From: a virus
DNA: 41,432 nucleotides
Virus genome (UHGV): UHGV-1461890
Reading direction: 5' to 3' (one strand)
Each line of letters opens with the position of its first letter. The stretch's first letter is position 1. Positions 24,901 through 36,561 of this stretch are shown here, piece after piece. The notes beneath the pieces are model-generated. The model did not search any database, was not told where the DNA came from, and saw only the letters and a program-made list of their open reading frames with translations. The translations under genes and the position numbers were made by a program.

Positions 24901-27265
24901 GGTTGAGCAGCTTGGTACTGATACAATGGTCTTCCTAAAATACTTAGGAGAACACAAGCAGTCTAACTCTATTGTGGACTTTGTTACATGGGACAATGCA
25001 CTTCCTTATTACACATTTAAACGCTTCGGTGAAGGCGGCGAATCTGTGTTTGAAGAGCTTATGGATGCTCAGGATAAATTGGCTTATCTTGCTGACGGTA
25101 TCTTCAAGTTTAAAGAAAATACTTGGACCGATAAAGAGGCAAGTGAGTGGAGCAAGGATACCCACACAATCAAATTACCGAGTGGTAGAGAGCTAACCTT
25201 AACCTCAGCCGATGCCATGTCAATTTACTGCCTATCACGAAGAGACCAAGGTAAGCAGCATTTGCTCGGCGGTGGTGTGAGAGTATTAGGTATCGAAAAG
25301 AATGGTAAAAAGGCTAATGACAGTAGGTCTCTGTTAAATCAGCAGGATTTAGTGGCAATAGCTAACTCCTTAACCGAAAGGCAAAAAAAGGTTGCCGAGG
25401 CTATTCAGCGATATATGTCAACCACTTGTGCTGAGTGGGGTAACGAAATCTCTATGAAGCGTTTCCTCACAAAAGAATTTAATGAACAATTCTACTTTCC
25501 TATTGAGTCTAACGATGAAAACCTCGACACAAAGGACCCGAAGGCCCAGCAGAGTGACCTTTATAGATTGCTTAATATTTCTGCTACCAAGCCTTTAACA
25601 AAGGGTGCAAACAACGAGGTTATAATCCGTAATGTGTTTGATGTGTTTGCTAATCATTCATCAGATATGGCTAAACTGAATGCTTTTGGTATGGCTCTCC
25701 TTGATTACATGAAGTGGATTAACTATCGTGTAAAGACTGTTAATGATGACGGACAAATCAGCGTTAGCGGTGTTCGTAAATCAATGGAAAAAGCCTACGG
25801 TTCAGAAGCCAATAAGTATGTGCTAAGTCTCATCAAGGATATAAATGGTCGCTATAACGATAATGGTGACAATAAGTTCCTTATGAAGATGATTCGTGGC
25901 GCTAAGACTGTTATGGTAGGTAATAACCTGAGAGTAGCGTTGTTACAGTTCACAGCATATCCAAGAGCCGCTATGGTACTTTCAAACAAGAGTCTTGCAT
26001 TAGGTCTCACTAAAGTGCCTCAGATTGAAAAAGCAAAGAAATATTGTGGCATTGCTTTGTGGAAATCGTTTGGTTTCTATGATACTAACATTTCTAAAAG
26101 CATAGAGGAGCAAATCAAGGGTGCAACGAACATTAGGCAAAAACTTATTGAGTTATCCTTAAAGGGCGCTGAATGGGGAGATGCAATCACATGGGGTTGC
26201 TTATGGAATGCCTGTGAGTATGAGGTTGCTAAAACCAATAAATACAAGGTTGGCTCCGAAGAGTTTAATCAGGCAGTAGGTAAAAAGCTTCGTGAGGTTG
26301 TATATGCGACTCAGGTTGTAGACTCTACTTTAACAAGGTCGCAGATGATGAGAAGCAAGAGTGGATTAAACCAAACCGCTTCAGCCTTCATGTCAGAGCC
26401 TACACTATCCGCTAATATGCTTATGGATGTTGCCTTCCAATTTAATCTTGAAAAGCGTAGGACAGGCTCAGCAAAGGCTGCTTGGAAAAAGACAAGTAAA
26501 TATGTCGGCAAGGCAGTAGGAGTTTACTGTGTAGTTCAGTTATTTGCTGCATTAGCAGAGAGCCTTATGGATGCTTATAGAGACGATGACGATGAGGAGT
26601 TTAAGAAGAAGTTCGGAGAGGCATTTAAAGAAAATGCTATATCCGACCTTAATCCAATCAACAAAATTCCTATTGTTGCAGATATTTCTGAAATGCTATT
26701 GTCTTTGACAGGTATAGGATACTATTCATCAGACAGTTTATACTCAACCGCTATCGATGAATTTAAAAATGTTTTTGAAACATGGCAAAAGGTTATAAAT
26801 GGTGAGGATGGTAAAACTGTTTATGCCGGTATCTATTCAACCACAAAGCTTTTATCCTACATAACAGGTGTATCAGGAAGCGGCTTAATGCGAGAGGTTG
26901 TTACCCTTTGGAACAACACAGCCGGTGCTGCTGACCCTTATTTGAAGATTAGGACATACGAAACCTCATCCACCGATAAAGGCATAGCAGAGTATCAGTT
27001 TGATAAGGGTGATACTGCCTCAGTTAAAACTACTATATCAAAAATGATTAAGGATAAAGTAAAGTCGGGCAAAACTGAAAAAGAAGCCAAATCTGCTGTA
27101 AGGTCCTCATTCACAAGCACTTATAAACCTGAATATATGGTTGCTGTAAAATCAAAAGATTATGACGAGATGAATCGCATAAGAAAACTCCTTTATGCAA
27201 CAGACTTATATGGCACATTATCCGAGCTTGACGAGACCTTGAAAAAGTGGCGCACAACTGAGTAG
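15917..27265 (+). CDS. Giant polyvalent protein, 3782 aa: hydrophobic Gly-zipper region, zincin metallopeptidase (HELTH), PBECR/MuF-C-like segment, unassigned central module, ART-PolyVal-like ADP-ribosyltransferase domain, long C-terminal region
   Basis: One stop-free 11349-nt frame with an AAGGAGGG RBS. Gly/Ala-rich hydrophobic segment at 17227-17810. HELTH at 19238-19252, preceded by NGFYKNGEIYIDLNAG. KPHDLSPEEVIGIIRAMNNPSHLVF around 19985. LSKEQQEFFKDSKVRDEKGNLKIMYHGT..GTGSYFT..DIRYSERD at 22400-23010. Confidence 0.8.
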   Translation: MGAKDVYEQLKREKQQGNSKAKKVYAQMMQSKIIDEFNSLIKHNSDFYNKTKSRFYDEDDNFIDIYRSDSEDWKNTAVSMSSSAREKSTNIRSLLDEYGSYYDADTVSSMLKTLDEHEKFSTDIVKQAVEQHDYFSEYKDENDYNQKVVIPKNQNEEWASANTEALKTEIGNLETSYKAYSELKSKRNLRSSQLISNYIKSGYTRDEAVKLAAKDKDIIEYDKKLSVYGDMSNAEKSLSEKKQFYNNATRVQEGLSLSGITDPSSKHYDPNYLKYSAKGEAMGDEKNGGFFTPDTQRKNQVAYLRNNPDMLELYEETANDANGASWGTSERILLDQIEYKAAKYMTDEEFLIYNAYLGKGDKESADKYLESIEETLTSRQGAAISEQQDTWLKKQLFSVYAGLDQWEQGIISLGNTEGKYDSPTGVQFASGTIREDLGAIGQGAYDLGVTTGNMLPSILVSYLTSGVGGAVGLGAKAAGTLGKVAGAATLGSSAAGNGYQEMLNLGYDKSQAQAYGTLVGLSEAGLEYVLGGISSLGGTVSGGITDKVVTKLVSNMDKAIAKVAIGAGGKLVGSMVSEFGEEYLQEVLDPVFKNITLNTDEDIRLFSSEALYAGILGALSAGLLEGGSSISGEVATYKAGKDVKNTGQLSNLKKFGTSFSADTVAYKIASQVDENTDAYTIGQLLHEVGADSLSEANIADIVKSLERKNISPEHAQTIAEWLNASVQGEVFNPLQRLALKNPDIAQTFKDVIINQNSTVNQRMQSYTDILQNIANEKEIIKANKSKAKAEKKANKTKTTEETKTTPFVPLSNEAITASKIESLAKELESEGVSPELAQVMAQRKVSESSEGKSVADTENAIENKFETNLDGQTLNTKTGDSVNVSEIASIKDGKMTLKLDNGETVDADDISFGTEDEGLIYSTVLDMGVNAAVANSLVKNYSPSDKLSARQYALGIKEAYKYGSYGMPINEISKNGFAADLSEAQRTHAYNLGKSDRTAKVEKAQKEVQKVVSGKNGIEGKVHFKGDELALKEVQRESLKRMGILSEVLGLNFHVFESYVDKNGKRVYKDTDGKIKKAPNGFYKNGEIYIDLNAGKDGQGIMIYTVAHELTHWIREWSPAKFKVLADFLFEQYGKGNRNVNKLIEDQITNAKNNGRTIDYDTAYEEVVADSMETMLSDDNVLEKIMLLKSKDESIIKKIGEFFEKIINSFKNLMQKYPPETTEGKLVSQMNDAFEELQSLFAEALVDASNNYQANKGQKNTTSEGDVKLQARELQRKDPTTLKEDELTTLLEYTKDKVLSDDTYIPVRINTPQILIAFAKEFGYTLENHPLAMQVYKARQALSNEENWDGDYQDKPHDLSPEEVIGIIRAMNNPSHLVFQTENERFAEIVKFEKEGSKEKAYAIVDFSDVNKNPDLMNGYKGGKYNILVTVYPSEDAADLKRYLSNKNHKVLTGEQMKKKGLSQGSYGGNTPSLLNDSPFFEDSIPQTSKKSQEKLSGRENFIGERNLEDFAEAKDTEGKTLFQYRAMESDEDVYREMLKTANIMSDSEINALFDTVDRAMDIIKDNLEILDYAWETDIDDRAFNPVKKNTDKLYQVSVDFSTLCRKRLLQQAIQAHLQEALNRPLTKNEGIAIRDALMTIQEEGKQIEIACALCYVESARMKSPAQIKRFIDGRETVIKNYFAGKSAEVKAQLKEAEAKARERLGVYDTPLTKLPSKAQKDIRGAKKDVISSYVPSAKEQELIEIAKGMSVNDFVTPKGLETLIKKYPDLFDAYASFIVNATHSKGIENDTWWRAGDSKNIGDTLIANMNAENGLRSQSWSDFQVIHLLDYMAATIELSTRKAKMQTYTKVPDFVELMGSTGEMINLSLIPTRNFNGTLDFDGIEGMEFEESLRLRDKYHATAGTIAIGVDNVQIQMLLDSMNIDYVIPYHRSGMAKAVRKAMHIPTWTEYENYQSEKNLSRDAAREQAKKYGVKLLSESDSNYQKHPNFSDWFDITEARQIAKMENSTPSDKAMAKKYGVMYGGYKAMQNAANNYLRLCAERSISPKFSHENANFTTEANYWKLLIDRKMIDNVTGEVIEQQAVKPIFDQGEVLRILNDELERYPSVKADQDYATRKVTENFLSGNIKGGMSAEAIAKAMKKSVDNIAKVNILASMGDSKLSDRDSEGNTLSKEQQEFFKDSKVRDEKGNLKIMYHGTSKGGHTVFDTYGSNYGLFGTGSYFTDNRDIAESYTKKGKGNNQQVYDTYLNITNPIDMDAQADVSKWEKQFPDADFSNCTTNEECYRAMEEWLEDEMLPKWEAAEIAIDGLQEMGYDGVTHIGGGRVNTDSTRHRVYIAFDSNQIKETTNTNPTSDPDIRYSERDAIESENKILDLESQISEIEEQLSEDIFDEIPDDERKKMNNQLWKLRNELQKLEKAEREATVKTSLSEIRDNLDKYRYIDLRSLAEGLGWEEYADLSKTQLANALRESLNEIEQEWKEDETSDFNSAKDGMWIRPISEEESNKVIKVKFQDRDADTTENIEKINKQLAKENLKLIEDVKYLKELVKLQGKETHGKVLKKSTVELVAKRLMTYVSARGNTSELVGHLTNVYNYIIQGEDVSWEGIQEKAEAAADWLMQNEHHKPVRDDVANEILHYLRTTGISFDSGQKQEAAYRYDSFNNFRKKNMGRLKITNDGLPLDMAWQELASMYPGYFDPEVNSNDQPLVLMDIIDGLQNTYELDDYHYYSDEMIKQDLLMKIYEGYWDVSALHTVADAKQKEINLLKAKHRESMDSLRQTHAEADAKLRQEHKDKISQLRSQYREREEKKVQKVAEYYQKSRKEAVDRVKESREKRDAITKLQRLVLDTAKWVSYPAKDAVKCPDIIKVPYAEFLESIDLSSKRLLSGGEPTQNDLRVASAMDSLAKAIEQKLGTQRPDTDTETVLDTGYLDLPVHFVENLKELAESLKKRMATDGHIVNSMTSTEIRDLTKFIRTLNHSIKEMSTLYANMRFAKVEQLGTDTMVFLKYLGEHKQSNSIVDFVTWDNALPYYTFKRFGEGGESVFEELMDAQDKLAYLADGIFKFKENTWTDKEASEWSKDTHTIKLPSGRELTLTSADAMSIYCLSRRDQGKQHLLGGGVRVLGIEKNGKKANDSRSLLNQQDLVAIANSLTERQKKVAEAIQRYMSTTCAEWGNEISMKRFLTKEFNEQFYFPIESNDENLDTKDPKAQQSDLYRLLNISATKPLTKGANNEVIIRNVFDVFANHSSDMAKLNAFGMALLDYMKWINYRVKTVNDDGQISVSGVRKSMEKAYGSEANKYVLSLIKDINGRYNDNGDNKFLMKMIRGAKTVMVGNNLRVALLQFTAYPRAAMVLSNKSLALGLTKVPQIEKAKKYCGIALWKSFGFYDTNISKSIEEQIKGATNIRQKLIELSLKGAEWGDAITWGCLWNACEYEVAKTNKYKVGSEEFNQAVGKKLREVVYATQVVDSTLTRSQMMRSKSGLNQTASAFMSEPTLSANMLMDVAFQFNLEKRRTGSAKAAWKKTSKYVGKAVGVYCVVQLFAALAESLMDAYRDDDDEEFKKKFGEAFKENAISDLNPINKIPIVADISEMLLSLTGIGYYSSDSLYSTAIDEFKNVFETWQKVINGEDGKTVYAGIYSTTKLLSYITGVSGSGLMREVVTLWNNTAGAADPYLKIRTYETSSTDKGIAEYQFDKGDTASVKTTISKMIKDKVKSGKTEKEAKSAVRSSFTSTYKPEYMVAVKSKDYDEMNRIRKLLYATDLYGTLSELDETLKKWRTTE

Positions 27266-32110: not shown

Positions 32111-33607
32111 CTAAATATCGTGAAAATAAATAGCTAAATTGCCTTTAGCCTTTTCAAATACAACCTTTTCAATTATTGTGCGTAACGCTTCATTCTTAGC
32201 CCGAGGTGTTACATCTTCCCTTTTTATGAACTCAAGTATGCCTACAACCTTTTCAGAGAAGGCATCTATGTCAATATCCTTAACTATGACCTTATCCCTA
32301 TCCTGCTTTAATTTCTCAATCTTAGTGGTTATTTCAGCCTTATTATTACCATACTGTTCAATGGTATCAATTTCGGCAAGGTAAGCCTCCTTTGCTCTTT
32401 CAAGCCTTCTTTCCTCTAAGGCTATGAGCTTATCATAGTCTATGGTAGGCTTTTCAGTTTGCTTAGGTGCTTTGGGTGTGATGTTAAATTGTTGGCTTCC
32501 TATGGCCTGTTCTAAACCTTTAATAAAGGCGCTTTCTAATTTAATCATACTGATAGAGTGAGATGTGTGACAAGAGCCTCTTGAATAGTTGCAACATTGT
32601 AAGGAGTGTGTTTTTTTCTTTGCAGCAAGATTCCTTGTTCCGTTATAAGCAAGTGTCGCTCCACAAGCACTACATCTAACAAGCCCTTTAAGGATATAAT
32701 CAATAGGTTGCTGCCTCCGAGCATGTTTAGAATACAACAATTTCATAGTTTGCAATCTTTCCTGAACCTTATCCCACAGTTCCATTGATATAAGTGGTTG
32801 CCAATTACCATCAATAATTTGGATGTTTTCATTGAGATAATCCCTTTTACTTACTACCTTTGAACCATCAGGTGTCCATCTGATTTTACCTATATAAGCA
32901 GGATTCCATAAAATATACTCTATCCACCTATTATCAGGTATATTACCTCTTTTGGTACGAACTCCTCTCTGCCCGAGCGAAATTGTAATTTCTCTCATAC
33001 CTTCACCATCAGCAAACCTTTGAAATATTTCTTTGATAACATCGGCAGCACCGCTTTCTACATCGGGAAGATAGGTTTTATCACCATTTATGTATCCAAA
33101 AGGAGCAAATACAGCAGGCTCTCCTCTGCTTACCTTTTCTTCCATGCCTCTTGATACTTCAGCGCCGAGGTTGATAAGGTAAAATTCATCCATCCATTCT
33201 ATAATTCTCTCCATGAGGCTTCCAAAAGGACCTTCAGGTATAGGCTCTGATACAGATTTAACCGATATGCCTATCTTTTGAAGCAAGTTTTTATATACTA
33301 TACTTTGCTCTTGGTTTCTTGCAAAACGAGATAACTTCCACACATATATAATATCAAAGGGATGATTTTTCTCCTTTGCCATGGCTATCATCAAGTTAAA
33401 GTTATCTCTTTTCTTTACGCTCTTTCCTGAGATACCATCATCATAAAATACATACTCATCAGGGATTAAATAACCTTCCCTTGCTGCAAATTCTCTGATT
33501 TTTTTGAGCTGAGAATCAGGACTGTATTCATCTTGCCTTTCATCCGATACACGAACATAGGCAGCTCCTATTTTTAATAATTCGTTTTCCACTTTATCAC
33601 TCCTCAT
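32111..33607 (-). CDS. int: Large serine recombinase (phage integrase)
   Basis: N-terminal resolvase motif GAAYVRVSDERQ..SPDSQ, a recombinase domain, a Cys-rich zinc ribbon (CSACGATL..CCNYSRGSC) and a C-terminal coiled coil. A GTG at 33592, preceded by GAGGAG, is an alternative start. Confidence 0.9.
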   Translation of the reverse strand: MRSDKVENELLKIGAAYVRVSDERQDEYSPDSQLKKIREFAAREGYLIPDEYVFYDDGISGKSVKKRDNFNLMIAMAKEKNHPFDIIYVWKLSRFARNQEQSIVYKNLLQKIGISVKSVSEPIPEGPFGSLMERIIEWMDEFYLINLGAEVSRGMEEKVSRGEPAVFAPFGYINGDKTYLPDVESGAADVIKEIFQRFADGEGMREITISLGQRGVRTKRGNIPDNRWIEYILWNPAYIGKIRWTPDGSKVVSKRDYLNENIQIIDGNWQPLISMELWDKVQERLQTMKLLYSKHARRQQPIDYILKGLVRCSACGATLAYNGTRNLAAKKKTHSLQCCNYSRGSCHTSHSISMIKLESAFIKGLEQAIGSQQFNITPKAPKQTEKPTIDYDKLIALEERRLERAKEAYLAEIDTIEQYGNNKAEITTKIEKLKQDRDKVIVKDIDIDAFSEKVVGILEFIKREDVTPRAKNEALRTIIEKVVFEKAKGNLAIYFHDI

Positions 33608-33854: not shown

Positions 33855-34430
33855 TTAATCGTCTTTTATAAAGTGATTAAAAACTAAGTAAAAAAATAAT
33901 ATTACTATTCCTACTAAAAAGAAAATTTTTGTTAATATTCCTGAGTAAGAATCCATAACGATATTTCCTATTACATCAATCCACAATAACAACAAAAAAT
34001 ATCCAACAACTTTTAATAAATCTTTATTTTGCAATATTTTTTTTAAAACACTTGTTATTTTATCTTTTATACAAAAATTTGTAATCTTACTTTCGCCATA
34101 TAACACTCGGCGGTGAATCTTTTGAAAAAGCTTAGATTGCTCCATTTCTTCTAATTTTACTTCTAACTGTTTAATCTCTTTATCTAAAGCAGAATCTAAA
34201 GCAACTCTACTTTTTACAATATCAATTGTTTTTTGAGAATGTTGTGTATAGCTAATATTGCGAAAAAGACCAGTATATTCTCTTTTTTTATACTCTGCAT
34301 TTAAAAGTTCGTGATATACATCCTGATATTTTTTATAAGCAGCCTTTTCGTTATCATTTTTTAAATAGTCTTCAACATTAGTAAAACGAAAAAATTCTTG
34401 TATATCATCGATGTCAATTCTTTCACTCAT
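33855..34430 (-). CDS. 191-aa protein with a coiled-coil N-terminal part and two C-terminal transmembrane helices (moron; exclusion or abortive-infection candidate)
   Basis: AGGGGA RBS. Hydrophobic segments VVGYFLLLLWIDVIGNIV and IFFLVGIVILFFYLVF. Very low GC by hand count: 15/60 at 33901-33960 and 13/60 at 33961-34020. Confidence 0.6.
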   Translation of the reverse strand: MSERIDIDDIQEFFRFTNVEDYLKNDNEKAAYKKYQDVYHELLNAEYKKREYTGLFRNISYTQHSQKTIDIVKSRVALDSALDKEIKQLEVKLEEMEQSKLFQKIHRRVLYGESKITNFCIKDKITSVLKKILQNKDLLKVVGYFLLLLWIDVIGNIVMDSYSGILTKIFFLVGIVILFFYLVFNHFIKDD

Positions 34431-34440
34431 AATAATTCCC

Positions 34441-34866
34441 CTAATCGTTTTTCTTCATGTAATAGTTATGCAAAGATATAATCTCTTCTTTATGGTCGAG
34501 TTTTAACCGTAATATGTCATTTTCGGATGTTAGCACTCCAACTTTGTCCTTAAGCATGACATTCTCAGCGGTTAAAAGTACAAGTTCGCTGCTGAGCCTT
34601 TCAACTTCAGCAGTAAGTTTGTCAACTTCTTCGTGCAGCATAGTGTAATTTTTACTGCCGATAACCACATTACTCTCGGCAAATAATTCGCCCATAGATA
34701 TGCCAAGAACGTCTGCAATTCGGTGAAGAGTAATAGCTTGTGGAGAGGGCGTTTCACCTGAAAAGATACGAGATACGGTCCTTTCGGGGAATTTTGACTC
34801 TTGAGCGATATATTTATAAGTATAACCAAGTTCTTTTCGTCTTTCTCTTATAATGTCAAGCCACAT
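34441..34866 (-). CDS. XRE-family HTH regulator with a C-terminal leucine-zipper-like coiled coil
   Basis: N-terminal GYTYKYIAQESKFPERTVSRIFSGETPSPQAITLHRIADVLGISMGELF HTH. C-terminal heptads VDKLTAEVERLSSELVLLTAENVMLKDKVGVL. Confidence 0.75.
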   Translation of the reverse strand: MWLDIIRERRKELGYTYKYIAQESKFPERTVSRIFSGETPSPQAITLHRIADVLGISMGELFAESNVVIGSKNYTMLHEEVDKLTAEVERLSSELVLLTAENVMLKDKVGVLTSENDILRLKLDHKEEIISLHNYYMKKND

Positions 34867-34977
34867 ATTGATGTCCTTTCAGTAGTCAAATTTGGGTATG
34901 GATTAGTCAAAAATGGACATTGAAAATCAGCTTAAAATATTTTACAATTTGCCCAACAAAAAACCAATCAGAATAAA

Positions 34978-35007
34978 TTGACAATTTCGACAAATAAATG
35001 TTAAAAT
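34978..35007 (+). promoter_or_regulatory. Orphan sigma-70-like promoter pointing into the 3' end of the repressor gene
   Basis: TTGACA at 34978-34983, an 18-nt spacer and an extended -10 TGtTAAAAT at 34999-35007. Shares the ttgaca(a)tttcgacaaa core with the cro-side promoter at 35736. Confidence 0.5.
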
Positions 35008-35121
35008 AAATTAAGAACATTTGTTCGAAAAGTCCGTTTTTTTGTACATTGATTTTTGTATTATTAAATTATAACCGAAATATTCACCTTATTTATATGT
35101 TTTTCGGAAGGGGTATCATCA

Positions 35122-35298
35122 ATGTCAAACAATCTTATAGAACTTCTAAGTATTATTCTTGAAAGCGGTAACCCGGAACAAGCAGTTCATACCGTAGCCA
35201 ATGTTATTTTTGGTCATTCATCTCAGCACGAATCGCACCGAGAAGAAATCTCTGTGTGTCAGGAGACATTTTGTCAAACGAAAGTGCCACCTCGATAA
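35122..35298 (+). CDS. Candidate 58-aa ORF below the track cutoff, convergent with and overlapping the repressor 3' end
   Basis: ATG at 35122 follows GGAAGGGG (35107-35114). Translates to MSNNLIELLSIILESGNPEQAVHTVANVIFGHSSQHESHREEISVCQETFCQTKVPPR. Its last 95 nt are antisense to CDS 35204-35620. Confidence 0.25.
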   Translation: MSNNLIELLSIILESGNPEQAVHTVANVIFGHSSQHESHREEISVCQETFCQTKVPPR

Positions 35299-35620
35299 GA
35301 AGTTTTTTCGCATCGTCAGAAAGTAGACGGTATAATTCTAACCATTTCCTCTCACCCTCGGTAAGCTCCTGCTTGTCGGGGGATTGTGTTTCTTTCTCCA
35401 TTGGAACATCATATCCCATTAACCATGCCTCGCTGACATCTAAGGCGTTTGCAATAAGAAATATCCTGTCCTGCTTAGGCTCAAACGCACCACTTATATA
35501 TTGACTTATAGCGCTTTTAGGTATTCCTGTAAGAGTACAAAGGTCAGATTGTTTCATATTTCTTATGGATAATGCCCTTGATATTCTTTTAGCACAGGTC
35601 TCTTTTCCGTTACTCATCAT
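35204..35620 (-). CDS. CI-type phage repressor (XRE HTH)
   Basis: HTH LSIRNMKQSDLCTLTGIPKSAISQYISGAFEPKQDRIFLIANALDVSEAWLMGYD. The ATG at 35620 follows AGAGG; the listed start at 35626 is a GTG inside the RBS. Divergent from the cro-like gene. Confidence 0.8.
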   Translation of the reverse strand: MMSNGKETCAKRISRALSIRNMKQSDLCTLTGIPKSAISQYISGAFEPKQDRIFLIANALDVSEAWLMGYDVPMEKETQSPDKQELTEGERKWLELYRLLSDDAKKLLIEVALSFDKMSPDTQRFLLGAIRAEMNDQK

Positions 35621-35647
35621 TTTCACCTCTTCAATATATTACCATAT

Positions 35648-35783
35648 AAGTTCAGAAAAATCAATACAAAGTTTAGAAAATTGGGGTTTTCAACCGAGAC
35701 AAAATAAAAAAGTTCAGAAAAATTGAAAAAAATACTTGACATTTCGACAAAAAACCGTTAAGATAAGTTCAGAAAATCTGAAC
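35648..35783. promoter_or_regulatory. Four operator-like repeats (AAGTTyAGAAAA) in the divergent switch region
   Basis: Copies at 35648-35662, 35669-35683, 35710-35725 and 35765-35783. The last contains the perfect 17-bp palindrome GTTCAGAAAATCTGAAC at 35767-35783. Confidence 0.55.
35736..35764 (+). promoter_or_regulatory. Early lytic promoter: TTGACA-N17-TAAGAT
   Basis: -35 at 35736-35741 and -10 at 35759-35764. The palindromic operator starts 3 nt downstream of the -10. Confidence 0.6.
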
Positions 35784-35799
35784 GAGGGAGGTGAAAATA

Positions 35800-36045
35800 A
35801 TGAAAATGAGCGATACAAACGTTAAATTTGATTACTCCAAACTTCTTGGAAAAATCAAAGAAAAAGGCTATATACAAAGTGATATTGCTAAGAAAGTTGG
35901 CATAGGTAAGACAACTTTTAACGAGGTCCTTTCGGGCAAAACTTTTTTAAGGCAGCCAACAATTATTAAGATTTGTGATGTGTTGGAAATAGCATATAAG
36001 GATATACCCTTATATTTTTTTACCCAAAGGGTTCAGGAAAACTAA
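35800..36045 (+). CDS. Cro-like XRE HTH regulator
   Basis: The ATG at 35800 lies 8 nt after GGGAGG (the listed start is a GTG at 35791). HTH GYIQSDIAKKVGIGKTTFNEVLSGK. First gene of the rightward early operon. Confidence 0.75.
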   Translation: MKMSDTNVKFDYSKLLGKIKEKGYIQSDIAKKVGIGKTTFNEVLSGKTFLRQPTIIKICDVLEIAYKDIPLYFFTQRVQEN

Positions 36046-36105
36046 ACTTTTAAAAACCTAAATGGGTACAAGCTACTCAATCATATTGTATAGAGAGGTG
36101 ATTAT

Positions 36106-36318
36106 ATGCAACGTCAGGAAATCAAAATGGAAGAGGTTAAGGTACATACACCTGACCTTGCAAAAGATAAAAAGAATGAATTAACCGTAACGCTTTTTAT
36201 CGGTGGTCAGCAGGTAGATAGCCTGACTTCCGAACAGAGTGAGCGTATGGCGAAGAGGTTAGGTAAAACAATGAGTCTATTTTACACAGCTCATTCAGAT
36301 GAATATGAAAAAATTTAA
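36106..36318 (+). CDS. Hypothetical 70-aa early protein
   Basis: AGAGAGGTG RBS. No family recognised. Confidence 0.55.
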   Translation: MQRQEIKMEEVKVHTPDLAKDKKNELTVTLFIGGQQVDSLTSEQSERMAKRLGKTMSLFYTAHSDEYEKI

Positions 36319-36330
36319 GGAGAAAAAACT

Positions 36331-36561
36331 ATGATTATTGAATCTTGGATAGCAGCAATCATTATGATTGCCCTTGCACTTATAGGAATTGTAGCTCTTT
36401 TTATGTCAATAGTAGAAGGCCAAAGGCTCGAAGACGCCAACCACCAGATTAAAAGACTTGAACACGAAAATGGCGAACTGAAGCGCTATATAGCAGTGCA
36501 AAGGACAAAGAACATCATAGGTGTGGCAAATGATTTTAATAACGAAGGGAAGAAAAAGTAA
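36331..36561 (+). CDS. Small bitopic membrane protein with a coiled-coil tail
   Basis: N-terminal helix WIAAIIMIALALIGIVALFMSIV, then QIKRLEHENGELKRYI. AGGAG RBS. Its stop overlaps the exonuclease start. Confidence 0.55.
   Translation: MIIESWIAAIIMIALALIGIVALFMSIVEGQRLEDANHQIKRLEHENGELKRYIAVQRTKNIIGVANDFNNEGKKK

Follow-up and report, generated by a model that had tools for sequence, protein, structure and literature searches.

In the virus genome UHGV-1461890, a stretch of 41,432 nucleotides (nt) that was analysed at its full length and is hereafter called the window, we found a protein-coding gene of only 58 amino acids (aa) that converges on, and overlaps, the 3' end of the gene for a CI-like repressor, and whose promoter, here termed P2, carries a LexA-type (SOS) box over its predicted transcription start. 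The window is a temperate phage genome of about 41 kb with structural and lysis genes on the plus strand. We hold with considerable confidence that P2 is the LexA-box-bearing promoter of a real small gene, and the product of this gene is rather likely to be an antirepressor of the CI protein with whose gene it overlaps. The reading that we favour, with a probability of about 0.6 on the strength of comparative sequence analysis and of analogy with characterised phages, is a LexA-derepressed small antirepressor, to which antisense transcription adds a second layer. The original prediction for this region had left the choice between an antisense or transcriptional-interference arm of the phage switch and a small antirepressor. 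The comparative evidence favours the latter, and purifying selection on the peptide speaks against a pure RNA arm.

In the proposed mechanism, host LexA would occupy the box in the lysogen and, sitting over the P2 start, would keep the small gene silent. Upon DNA damage, self-cleavage of LexA would allow P2 to fire, with a predicted transcript of ~380 nt (~35014 to ~35390), the last ~190 nt of which would be antisense to CI. The 58-aa helical protein would bind the C-terminal oligomerisation domain of CI and break CI oligomers, thereby releasing the cro-side promoter, and the 3' part of the RNA, being antisense to the end of the CI message, would act along with convergent transcription to reduce CI synthesis. 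An upstream promoter, P1, accompanied by repeats beside a divergent gene for an XRE-type helix-turn-helix (HTH) protein, would probably supply a second, SOS-independent input. Given the position of the box over the P2 start, this promoter would serve as an SOS input to the switch and not as a constitutive antisense arm. We infer the LexA binding, the induction by SOS, the interaction of the two proteins and the antisense effect, and the protein-level step is modelled on the AimX/AimC pair of Bacillus phages discussed below.

Searches with the small protein recovered no match in Pfam, PHROGs or NCBIfam (a sub-threshold hit to UPF0758_N, E = 0.002, was taken as chance), no tblastn match among GenBank phages and no sequence match in the PDB. 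A first homologue, of 51 aa and in the same convergent position, was detected on an IMG/VR contig by tblastn against loci fetched through relatives of CI, and a profile search of a large protein collection uncovered at least 472 homologous protein clusters, nearly all of 51 aa, with no name and no Pfam domain, originating from prophages of Oscillospiraceae and related Clostridia. Comparisons were made over 97 non-redundant related loci, of which 15 come from GTDB genomes (hosts being Oscillospiraceae, Acutalibacteraceae, Christensenellaceae and other Eubacteriales metagenome-assembled genomes), 80 from metagenomes and the rest from other sources. The divergent peptide of the window confirmed three loci only, and a typical family member was used as the lead for the locus search instead. 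The family consensus is MTDNEKELIxxIRENDNPEQALMTAAVIILGFLKQHESSExQAxAxLxxxx, with 27 positions at least 90% conserved in 110 members. The open reading frame (ORF) had been proposed to be preceded by a ribosome-binding site, and this is borne out by GGAAGGGG 8 nt before the ATG; GAAAGGGG is kept at this position in nearly all relatives, and the ATG is also conserved. In codons 2-27, which lie outside CI, positional entropy is 0.53, 0.39 and 1.18 for the three codon positions (76 distinct 51-codon alleles), and the synonymous fraction is 0.45, falling to 0.12 and 0.06 when the alternative frames are read. Such values clearly mark a coding sequence under frame-specific purifying selection, and thus a real gene. 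P2 had been described as an "orphan" promoter, a label that has to be abandoned since it belongs to a conserved protein-coding gene with homologues in all these clusters and with coding-type variability at third positions.

The last 95 nt of the ORF are, as originally noted, antisense to the CI gene. In all 86 loci with enough flanking sequence, the stop codon of CI is found within codons 28-29 of the small gene, at a distance of 76-85 nt (mode 82) from the ATG of the latter; in the window itself this distance is 82 nt. In codons 29-39 the constraint is the same at each of the three positions, a pattern that points to dual coding. Codons 40-51 are most variable at codon position 2, the wobble position of the CI frame; hence the tail of the small protein is dictated by CI, and its functional core comprises residues 1-39. 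AlphaFold2 models helices at residues 2-13 and 18-34 (predicted local distance difference test, pLDDT, ~80), which are joined by an invariant NPEQ turn and followed by a low-confidence tail. Foldseek searches with the model against the PDB or BFVD returned nothing significant, and for such a low-confidence three-helix peptide a fold search is uninformative.

The repressor on the opposite strand has its own peculiarities. Pfam detects no Peptidase_S24 self-cleavage domain in the CI of the window. Relatives with the same HTH domain and a longer C-terminus do match Peptidase_S24 (E = 4e-29 to 1e-14), and other relatives with this HTH domain possess different short helical tails. Lacking a self-cleavage domain, the CI of the window would be unable to sense RecA directly. 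Ten other ORFs that were scanned (those of 120 aa or more in the early region, together with the ones at the window start) likewise contain neither an S24 nor a classical antirepressor domain, and the LexA box at P2 is therefore the only SOS connection of this phage that is visible in its sequence. Across the loci, the repressors combine at least five types of N-terminal HTH domain with one common C-terminal module, L(S/T)EGEKxLLDLFRRVPEDKQQLVLQMIRAALG. Among 80 viral loci picked for similarity to the HTH domain of the window, the small gene is present only in the five with the conserved C-terminal module. The window has a diverged, longer version of this module: relative to the family consensus, the CI C-terminus (35204-35330) contains an insertion of ~18 aa between the two helices. 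This insertion parallels the longer (58 vs 51 aa) and more divergent small protein as well as the larger spacing between ORF stop and terminator.

P2 had been predicted as a near-consensus plus-strand promoter and stands up as such: it matches the hexamers at 11 of 12 positions, has an extended -10 and scores highest in the region. Promoter-like matches in the region are overall not above chance (8 found vs 7.5 expected). Hence, the hexamer match alone proves little and the case for P2 rests on conservation in relatives, where a TTGACA-17-TAnAnT promoter is found ~80 nt upstream of the small-gene ATG in most of 78 related loci. The LexA-type box, which the original prediction had not picked up, corresponds to the Firmicutes LexA motif with a GAAC-N4-GTTC core, for which the consensus CGAACRNRYGTTYC and the assembled consensus TACGAACATATGTTCGTA have been published (PMC2248561, PMC4951493). 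The box of the window, AGAACATTTGTTCG, is its sole exact GAAC-N4-GTTC; one-mismatch cores elsewhere in the window occur at chance frequency, with none at another promoter. The 97 related loci, 435 kb in total, contain 47 exact cores, and 40 of these are found in the 150 nt that precede the small gene, a region that accounts for ~3% of the related-locus sequence; this amounts to a ~190-fold enrichment. The exact box is found in 37 of 85 loci and a one-mismatch box in 20 more, mostly at the same offset (-31 to -47). Among the seven exact cores outside this region, one represents the usual site in a locus whose leader is longer, another comes after the -10 of a promoter on the cro side and a further two are upstream of the zinc (Zn)-ribbon gene in the integrase-side operon. 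The logo of 48 distinct sites, aGAACAnaTGTTCG, agrees with the published consensus at positions that played no part in selection (R 47/48, R 35/48, Y 44/48 and a flanking G 36/48), reproducing the published R-N-R-Y pattern. Variation affects the four central bases and the flanks of the box and spares its arms. The box is retained across loci with unrelated CI HTH domains, whether or not the divergent XRE gene is present, which makes a phage-specific binder unlikely; host LexA is the most parsimonious candidate for the protein that binds it.

LexA-type boxes were also observed at other places in individual relatives. One locus (L120, ~3095) has TGAACAACAGTTCGAC after the -10 of its cro-side early promoter, and another (L004, ~2860-2880, minus-strand reading) has AAACGTATGTTCGG in the spacer of this promoter; in these two, LexA may repress the lytic promoter directly. 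Two further loci (L126, 972-1000, and L151, 1771-1800) display a perfect CGAACAATTGTTCG followed by a hairpin, AAGTCC…GGACTT, between the XRE and Zn-ribbon genes of the integrase-side operon. A nearly identical string, GAACATTTGTTCGAAAAGTCCG, is seen in the window after P2 (35015-35045), where the leader is ~65 nt longer than in relatives. This suggests that the region was acquired by recombination.

By analogy, the closest working counterpart of the locus is the AimX-AimC-AimL system of the "extended arbitrium" Bacillus phages phi106, BMBtp14, Wbeta and Waukesha92 (Kabel et al., bioRxiv 10.1101/2025.11.23.689978). In these phages, an AimX ORF of 29-80 aa is convergent with, and sometimes overlaps, the gene for a short non-cleavable HTH repressor, a LexA site is located upstream in phi106, and AimX was shown to bind the C-terminal helical oligomerisation domain of the repressor, blocking both oligomerisation and DNA binding (10.1101/2025.11.23.689978). 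Both systems feature a short HTH repressor (80-140 aa in the Bacillus phages) that has no autocleavage domain and is divergent from a cro-like gene, a small helical protein encoded by an ORF convergent toward the repressor, and an upstream LexA site (there in phi106). This layout, with the small ORF convergent or overlapping with the gene for a short HTH repressor, which in turn is divergent from a cro-like gene, is common to all our related loci. However, no sequence similarity to the AimX/AimC proteins was detected, and the hosts are Oscillospiraceae and other Clostridia rather than Bacillus. Here the overlap is invariant, the terminator of the small gene is built into linker codons of the repressor, and one conserved pair of small protein and C-terminal domain is found on many HTH domains, whereas AimX/AimC pairs are highly divergent. 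Furthermore, aimR and aimP are missing: no tetratricopeptide-repeat protein or signal-peptide ORF was found upstream of the small gene, where all genes (XRE, membrane protein, Zn-ribbon, integrase) are on the opposite strand and the immediate neighbour is the divergent XRE coiled-coil gene. In the absence of aimR/aimP upstream, the locus is not a member of the extended arbitrium group.

LexA-controlled antirepressors are also found in other phages, such as Tum of coliphage 186 and AntC of N15. Sar/YopT of SPbeta-like phages is likewise a small antirepressor under LexA control (bioRxiv 10.1101/2025.11.27.690993), and the Gifsy prophage antirepressors are reported to be LexA-controlled (PMC3121763). 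All these systems resemble the arrangement that we propose, in which a non-cleavable repressor is combined with a small antirepressor gene under an SOS-box promoter and induction by damage is thus indirect. They differ in that unrelated proteins act on unrelated repressors and that the antirepressor genes are neither convergent with nor overlapping the repressor gene; Sar in particular mimics DNA and binds an integrase-fold repressor. A different kind of parallel is offered by SinI-SinR of Bacillus subtilis, wherein the repressor, of the XRE type, has a helical C-terminal domain for multimerisation, and a helical protein of ~57 aa that resembles this domain acts as its antagonist. There is a weak resemblance between helix 1 of our small protein (MTxNExELIxLIR) and helix 1 of the CI C-terminal domain (LTEGEKILLDLFR): aligning 95 small proteins with 86 C-terminal domains, hhalign gives a local P = 0.025 over 13 columns and a global P = 0.09. 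These values hint at mimicry of the SinI/SinR type and are not significant enough for it to be claimed. No significant homology to SinI or SinR emerged from Pfam, and, unlike the small gene, sinI is upstream of sinR on the same strand, is not part of a phage switch and is not LexA-controlled.

Several points weigh against the LexA-derepressed antirepressor. With respect to the promoter, the 18-nt spacer of P2 is suboptimal, the box of the window has two mismatches to the 14-nt consensus, and the LexA motif presumed for Oscillospiraceae is that of the Firmicutes consensus, which may not be the one at the SOS genes of the host. No box within one mismatch is present in 28 of 85 relatives, i.e. 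about one third, so that LexA control would be common and not universal in the family. A few relatives have P1 only and no P2, and transcripts from P1 would have to cross the LexA site, so that the gene may not be purely SOS-controlled. With respect to the protein, the above searches reveal neither sequence nor fold similarity to any characterised antirepressor, the overall pLDDT of the monomer model is a moderate 65-67, and the similarity to the CI C-terminal helix is weak. Finally, physical overlap by itself guarantees co-inheritance, and the linkage of the small gene to the CI C-terminus is thus weaker evidence for an interaction than it looks.

An alternative with a small yet appreciable probability is that the small protein is SOS-induced and has a target other than CI, such as the 141-aa XRE protein, host LexA or RecA (compare the small protein gp7 of phage GIL01), or a host process like cell division. 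The LexA box and the coding evidence fit this equally well. Moreover, the small gene is usually paired with the divergent XRE coiled-coil gene; homologues of the XRE protein (34-53% identity) are encoded divergently at this place in 45 of 64 related loci. This recalls the transcription factor-small ORF (TF-smORF) modules of plasmid-like phages of Vibrio and Aeromonas, in which an XRE-type factor is divergent from a small ORF of 156-183 nt whose promoter it activates; the product of the latter inactivates cI without proteolysis, and the modules are SOS-independent (Silpe et al. 2023, PMC10432266). In the window, too, the 141-aa XRE gene is divergent from an ORF of 177 nt, with repeats at the P1 -35. 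In contrast, P2 carries a LexA box, and the TF-smORF modules are neither adjacent to nor overlapping cI. Small phage proteins that bind LexA are also on record (PMC4551915), and an association with the membrane is conceivable for the hydrophobic helix 18-34. Speaking against this alternative, 19 of the 64 loci, all of which retain the small gene, lack the XRE gene, whereas the CI C-terminal module is present in every one of the 86 checkable loci (an association partly forced by the overlap). The hydrophobic stretch spans only ~13 residues, there is no signal peptide, and a LexA co-repressor that is itself under LexA repression makes little regulatory sense.

The extent of the antisense transcript is predicted from an intrinsic terminator inside CI that the original prediction had missed. 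Its hairpin (-17.8 kcal/mol, z = -2.8) is located 57 nt beyond the ORF stop; an equivalent hairpin with a T-run is found 3' of the small-gene stop in nearly all of 89 folded relatives (~4 exceptions, judged from the folds), and 4 of its 9 consensus pairs show compensatory changes. On the other strand, the same bases are CI linker codons (…QELTEGERK… in the window, SPxExxL[S/T]EGE in the family). The transcript had been expected to run head-on into the repressor 3' end. The convergent antisense geometry is strictly conserved, and it is the run through the whole repressor gene that is disputed by the conserved terminator: as the latter sits inside CI, the transcript should stop after ~190 nt of antisense overlap and probably does not traverse the entire gene. 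It is unlikely, in our estimate, that the unit acts mainly as RNA, with cis-antisense or convergent transcription from P2 lowering CI expression and the peptide being incidental. Such a role would be in line with the preservation of both the convergent geometry and the predicted antisense overlap in every locus, with the conserved terminator position within CI, and with the C-terminal third of the ORF (family codons 40-51), which follows the constraint of the CI frame and not its own. Elements of this kind are well known in phage switches, e.g. the lambda OOP RNA against cII, the P22 sar RNA against ant and the face-to-face promoters of 186. In these, as in the window, a promoter directed into the 3' end of a lysogeny-promoting gene gives a short, terminated antisense transcript. 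However, they are non-coding RNAs or cases of pure promoter interference, whereas here a conserved protein-coding transcript is preceded by a LexA-type box. A pure RNA or interference role is insufficient because it leaves the strong frame-specific purifying selection on codons 2-27 unexplained, and the conservation of the ribosome-binding site, the ATG and the 27 residues similarly speaks against it. An Rfam scan of 34000-36500 found no family match, and no significant structure was found for the 107-nt leader (z = 0.28), results that do not support an RNA function and on which a riboswitch or known small RNA was also dropped. An antisense contribution on top of the protein is likely.

The palindrome over the P2 start might also be read as the operator of a phage-encoded regulator instead of a site for host LexA, which we consider quite unlikely. 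A lone GAAC-N4-GTTC in 41 kb is unsurprising, as at least one arises by chance in 38 of 100 shuffles of such a sequence, and phage HTH proteins commonly bind short promoter palindromes. However, the motif, including its LexA-specific inner positions, stays in place regardless of the HTH type of CI or the presence of the XRE gene, and on this conservation the phage operator was rejected. The likely CI/Cro operators are also of different sequence (AAGTTCAGAAAA), with four occurrences that are all confined to the CI-cro intergenic region. Very improbable, finally, is a damage-induced recombination directionality factor (excisionase) for the adjacent integrase: the small gene does lie between the integrase operon and the immunity genes, opposite to int as does xis in some staphylococcal phages, and its product is small and helical, but this identity was rejected since the family co-occurs with tyrosine integrases (L097, L099, L100: Phage_integrase) and with large serine recombinases (L094, L098: Resolvase/Recombinase) alike, and its invariant partner is the CI C-terminus and not the integrase.

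For the LexA-derepressed antirepressor, the combination of a non-cleavable repressor with a LexA-controlled small antirepressor is already known, as is the convergent or overlapping layout from the late-2025 preprints on Bacillus arbitrium phages. New are the large unannotated protein family, the setting in gut Clostridia and the invariant two-strand cassette that serves many DNA-binding domains. The fixed overlap and the recurrence of a single C-terminal module with five or more types of HTH domain suggest, as a tentative and rather doubtful proposal, a portable dual-coding "induction cassette" of ~450 bp that comprises P1/P2, the LexA box, the small gene, the embedded terminator and the CI C-terminal domain. 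Its opposite strands would encode the oligomerisation domain of the repressor and the SOS-induced protein (plus antisense RNA) that defeats this repressor. If this were true, recombination could graft damage-inducibility onto any HTH DNA-binding domain, while the specificity of immunity could still vary freely. In gut Clostridia (Oscillospiraceae, Acutalibacteraceae, Christensenellaceae), prophage induction shapes the virome of the gut, and the switches concerned are barely known, with hosts that are largely uncultured. The locus is a complete and recognisable control unit that predicts which of these prophages are SOS-inducible and how, and it provides a concrete pair of small protein and repressor for testing. 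It would extend a principle recently found in Bacillus, i.e. a LexA-controlled small antirepressor directed against the oligomerisation domain of a non-cleavable repressor, to another bacterial class. The invariant coding of an antagonist and its presumed target on two strands also makes it an unusually clean case for the co-evolution of overlapping genes.

Table 1. Features of the switch region and its surroundings in the window (positions in the 41,432-nt stretch)
Feature	Position	Strand	Description
Promoter P2	34978-35007	+	TTGACA 34978-34983, 18-nt spacer, TAAAAT 35002-35007; TG at 34999-35000 (TG-n-TAAAAT)
LexA-type (SOS, "Cheo") box	35014-35027	.	AGAACATTTGTTCG; 7 nt downstream of P2 -10, over predicted transcription start
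Ribosome-binding site	35106-35113	+	GGAAGGGG; read from sequence
Small gene	35122-35298	+	58 aa, MSNNLIELLSIILESGNPEQAVHTVANVIFGHSSQHESHREEISVCQETFCQTKVPPR; putative antirepressor; conserved core residues 1-39
Two-strand coding region	35204-35298	.	95 nt; plus strand, small-gene codons 28-58; minus strand, last 31 CI codons and stop
CI-like repressor	35204-35617	-	137 aa; N-terminal HTH_3, linker, short helical C-terminal domain; Pfam HTH_3 and Phage_CI_repr only
Intrinsic terminator	35355-35399	+	12-bp GC-rich hairpin 35355-35382, then U-rich tract
Motif in P2 spacer	34984-34994	+	ATTTCGACAAA; second exact copy in cro-side promoter spacer, 35741-35751
Cro-side early promoter	35736-35785	+	TTGACA-17-TAAGAT; ATTTCGACAAA in spacer, then palindrome GTTCAGAAAATCTGAAC
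Promoter P1	34920-34948	+	TTGAAA-17-TACAAT; 10/12 hexamer matches
Direct repeats	34883-34923	.	TAGTCAAATTTGGGTATGGA and TAGTCAAAAATGGACATTGA; 20 nt each, 21-nt spacing; between HTH gene start and P1 -35
XRE-type HTH protein	34441-34866	-	141 aa, C-terminal coiled coil; Pfam HTH_3, E = 2e-10
Cro-like gene (DUF739/HTH)	35800-36045	+	First early lytic gene; Pfam DUF739, E = 2e-11
Lysogeny block		-	Serine integrase (32111-33607), 80-aa Zn-ribbon protein, 191-aa membrane protein, 141-aa XRE-HTH gene, CI-like repressor

The core of P2 had been recognised as repeated on the cro side, and the repeat proves to extend over 45 nt (34984-35028 vs 35741-35785) with 78% identity; the 35 matches out of 45 compare with a highest value of 29 among 300 shuffles. 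ATTTCGACAAA has exactly two exact copies in the window, one in each promoter spacer, and it may be a putative operator common to P2 and the cro-side promoter. Its reverse complement, TGTCGAAAT, is found just upstream of the P2 -35 in relatives and forms a near-palindrome with TTGACA. The CI-cro region further displays direct copies of AAGTT(C/T)AGAAAA at 35648, 35669, 35710 and 35765 (35648-35776), with none in P2. The last of these falls within the palindrome GTTCAGAAAATCTGAAC, after the cro-side -10, and the copies are probably CI/Cro operators.

P1, a second promoter that the original prediction did not list, has its counterpart in roughly one third of relatives in the form of a TTGAnn-17-TATAAT promoter ~55-65 nt upstream of P2 and ~140 nt upstream of the ATG. 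The direct repeats in front of it are putative binding sites of the 141-aa HTH protein, which is a candidate regulator of P1, be it as activator or as repressor. In relatives, a related motif, AAAnTTGGGTAT, adjoins the P1 -35, and this only where the divergent XRE gene exists, with at least one match in 25 of 45 loci with the gene vs none of 19 without it. P1 and its repeats beside the XRE gene suggest an additional input that would not depend on LexA.

The gap between the 141-aa gene and the CI stop at 35204 measures 337 nt (34867-35203), as first described, and accommodates the control region of the small gene along with its 5' half. The 141-aa XRE gene is the first of the integrase-side operon and is divergent from the small gene. 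A promoter scan of the gap found no convincing minus-strand promoter for this gene, and no terminator was found after CI. In relatives, minus-strand promoter matches are seen in 16 of 78 loci only, at scattered positions. The integrase-side operon might possibly be expressed by transcription that starts at the CI promoter and crosses the small gene in antisense orientation. In one related prophage (L082, 711-2970), the serine integrase adjoins cotJA, cotJB and a 37-aa Mn_catalase fragment, which suggests integration into the sporulation gene cotJC, similar to other elements that interrupt sporulation genes.

GenBank phages contain no DNA similar to this region of the window apart from one 80-nt repressor match. 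On the plus strand, the cro-like gene is followed by early genes for a YqaJ exonuclease, RecT, SSB and a C-5 cytosine DNA methylase, the last being located at 39486-40199 (+). The tail-gene region has one ORF of 3782 aa (15917-27265, +), which is unusually large for a siphovirus-like genome of 41 kb.

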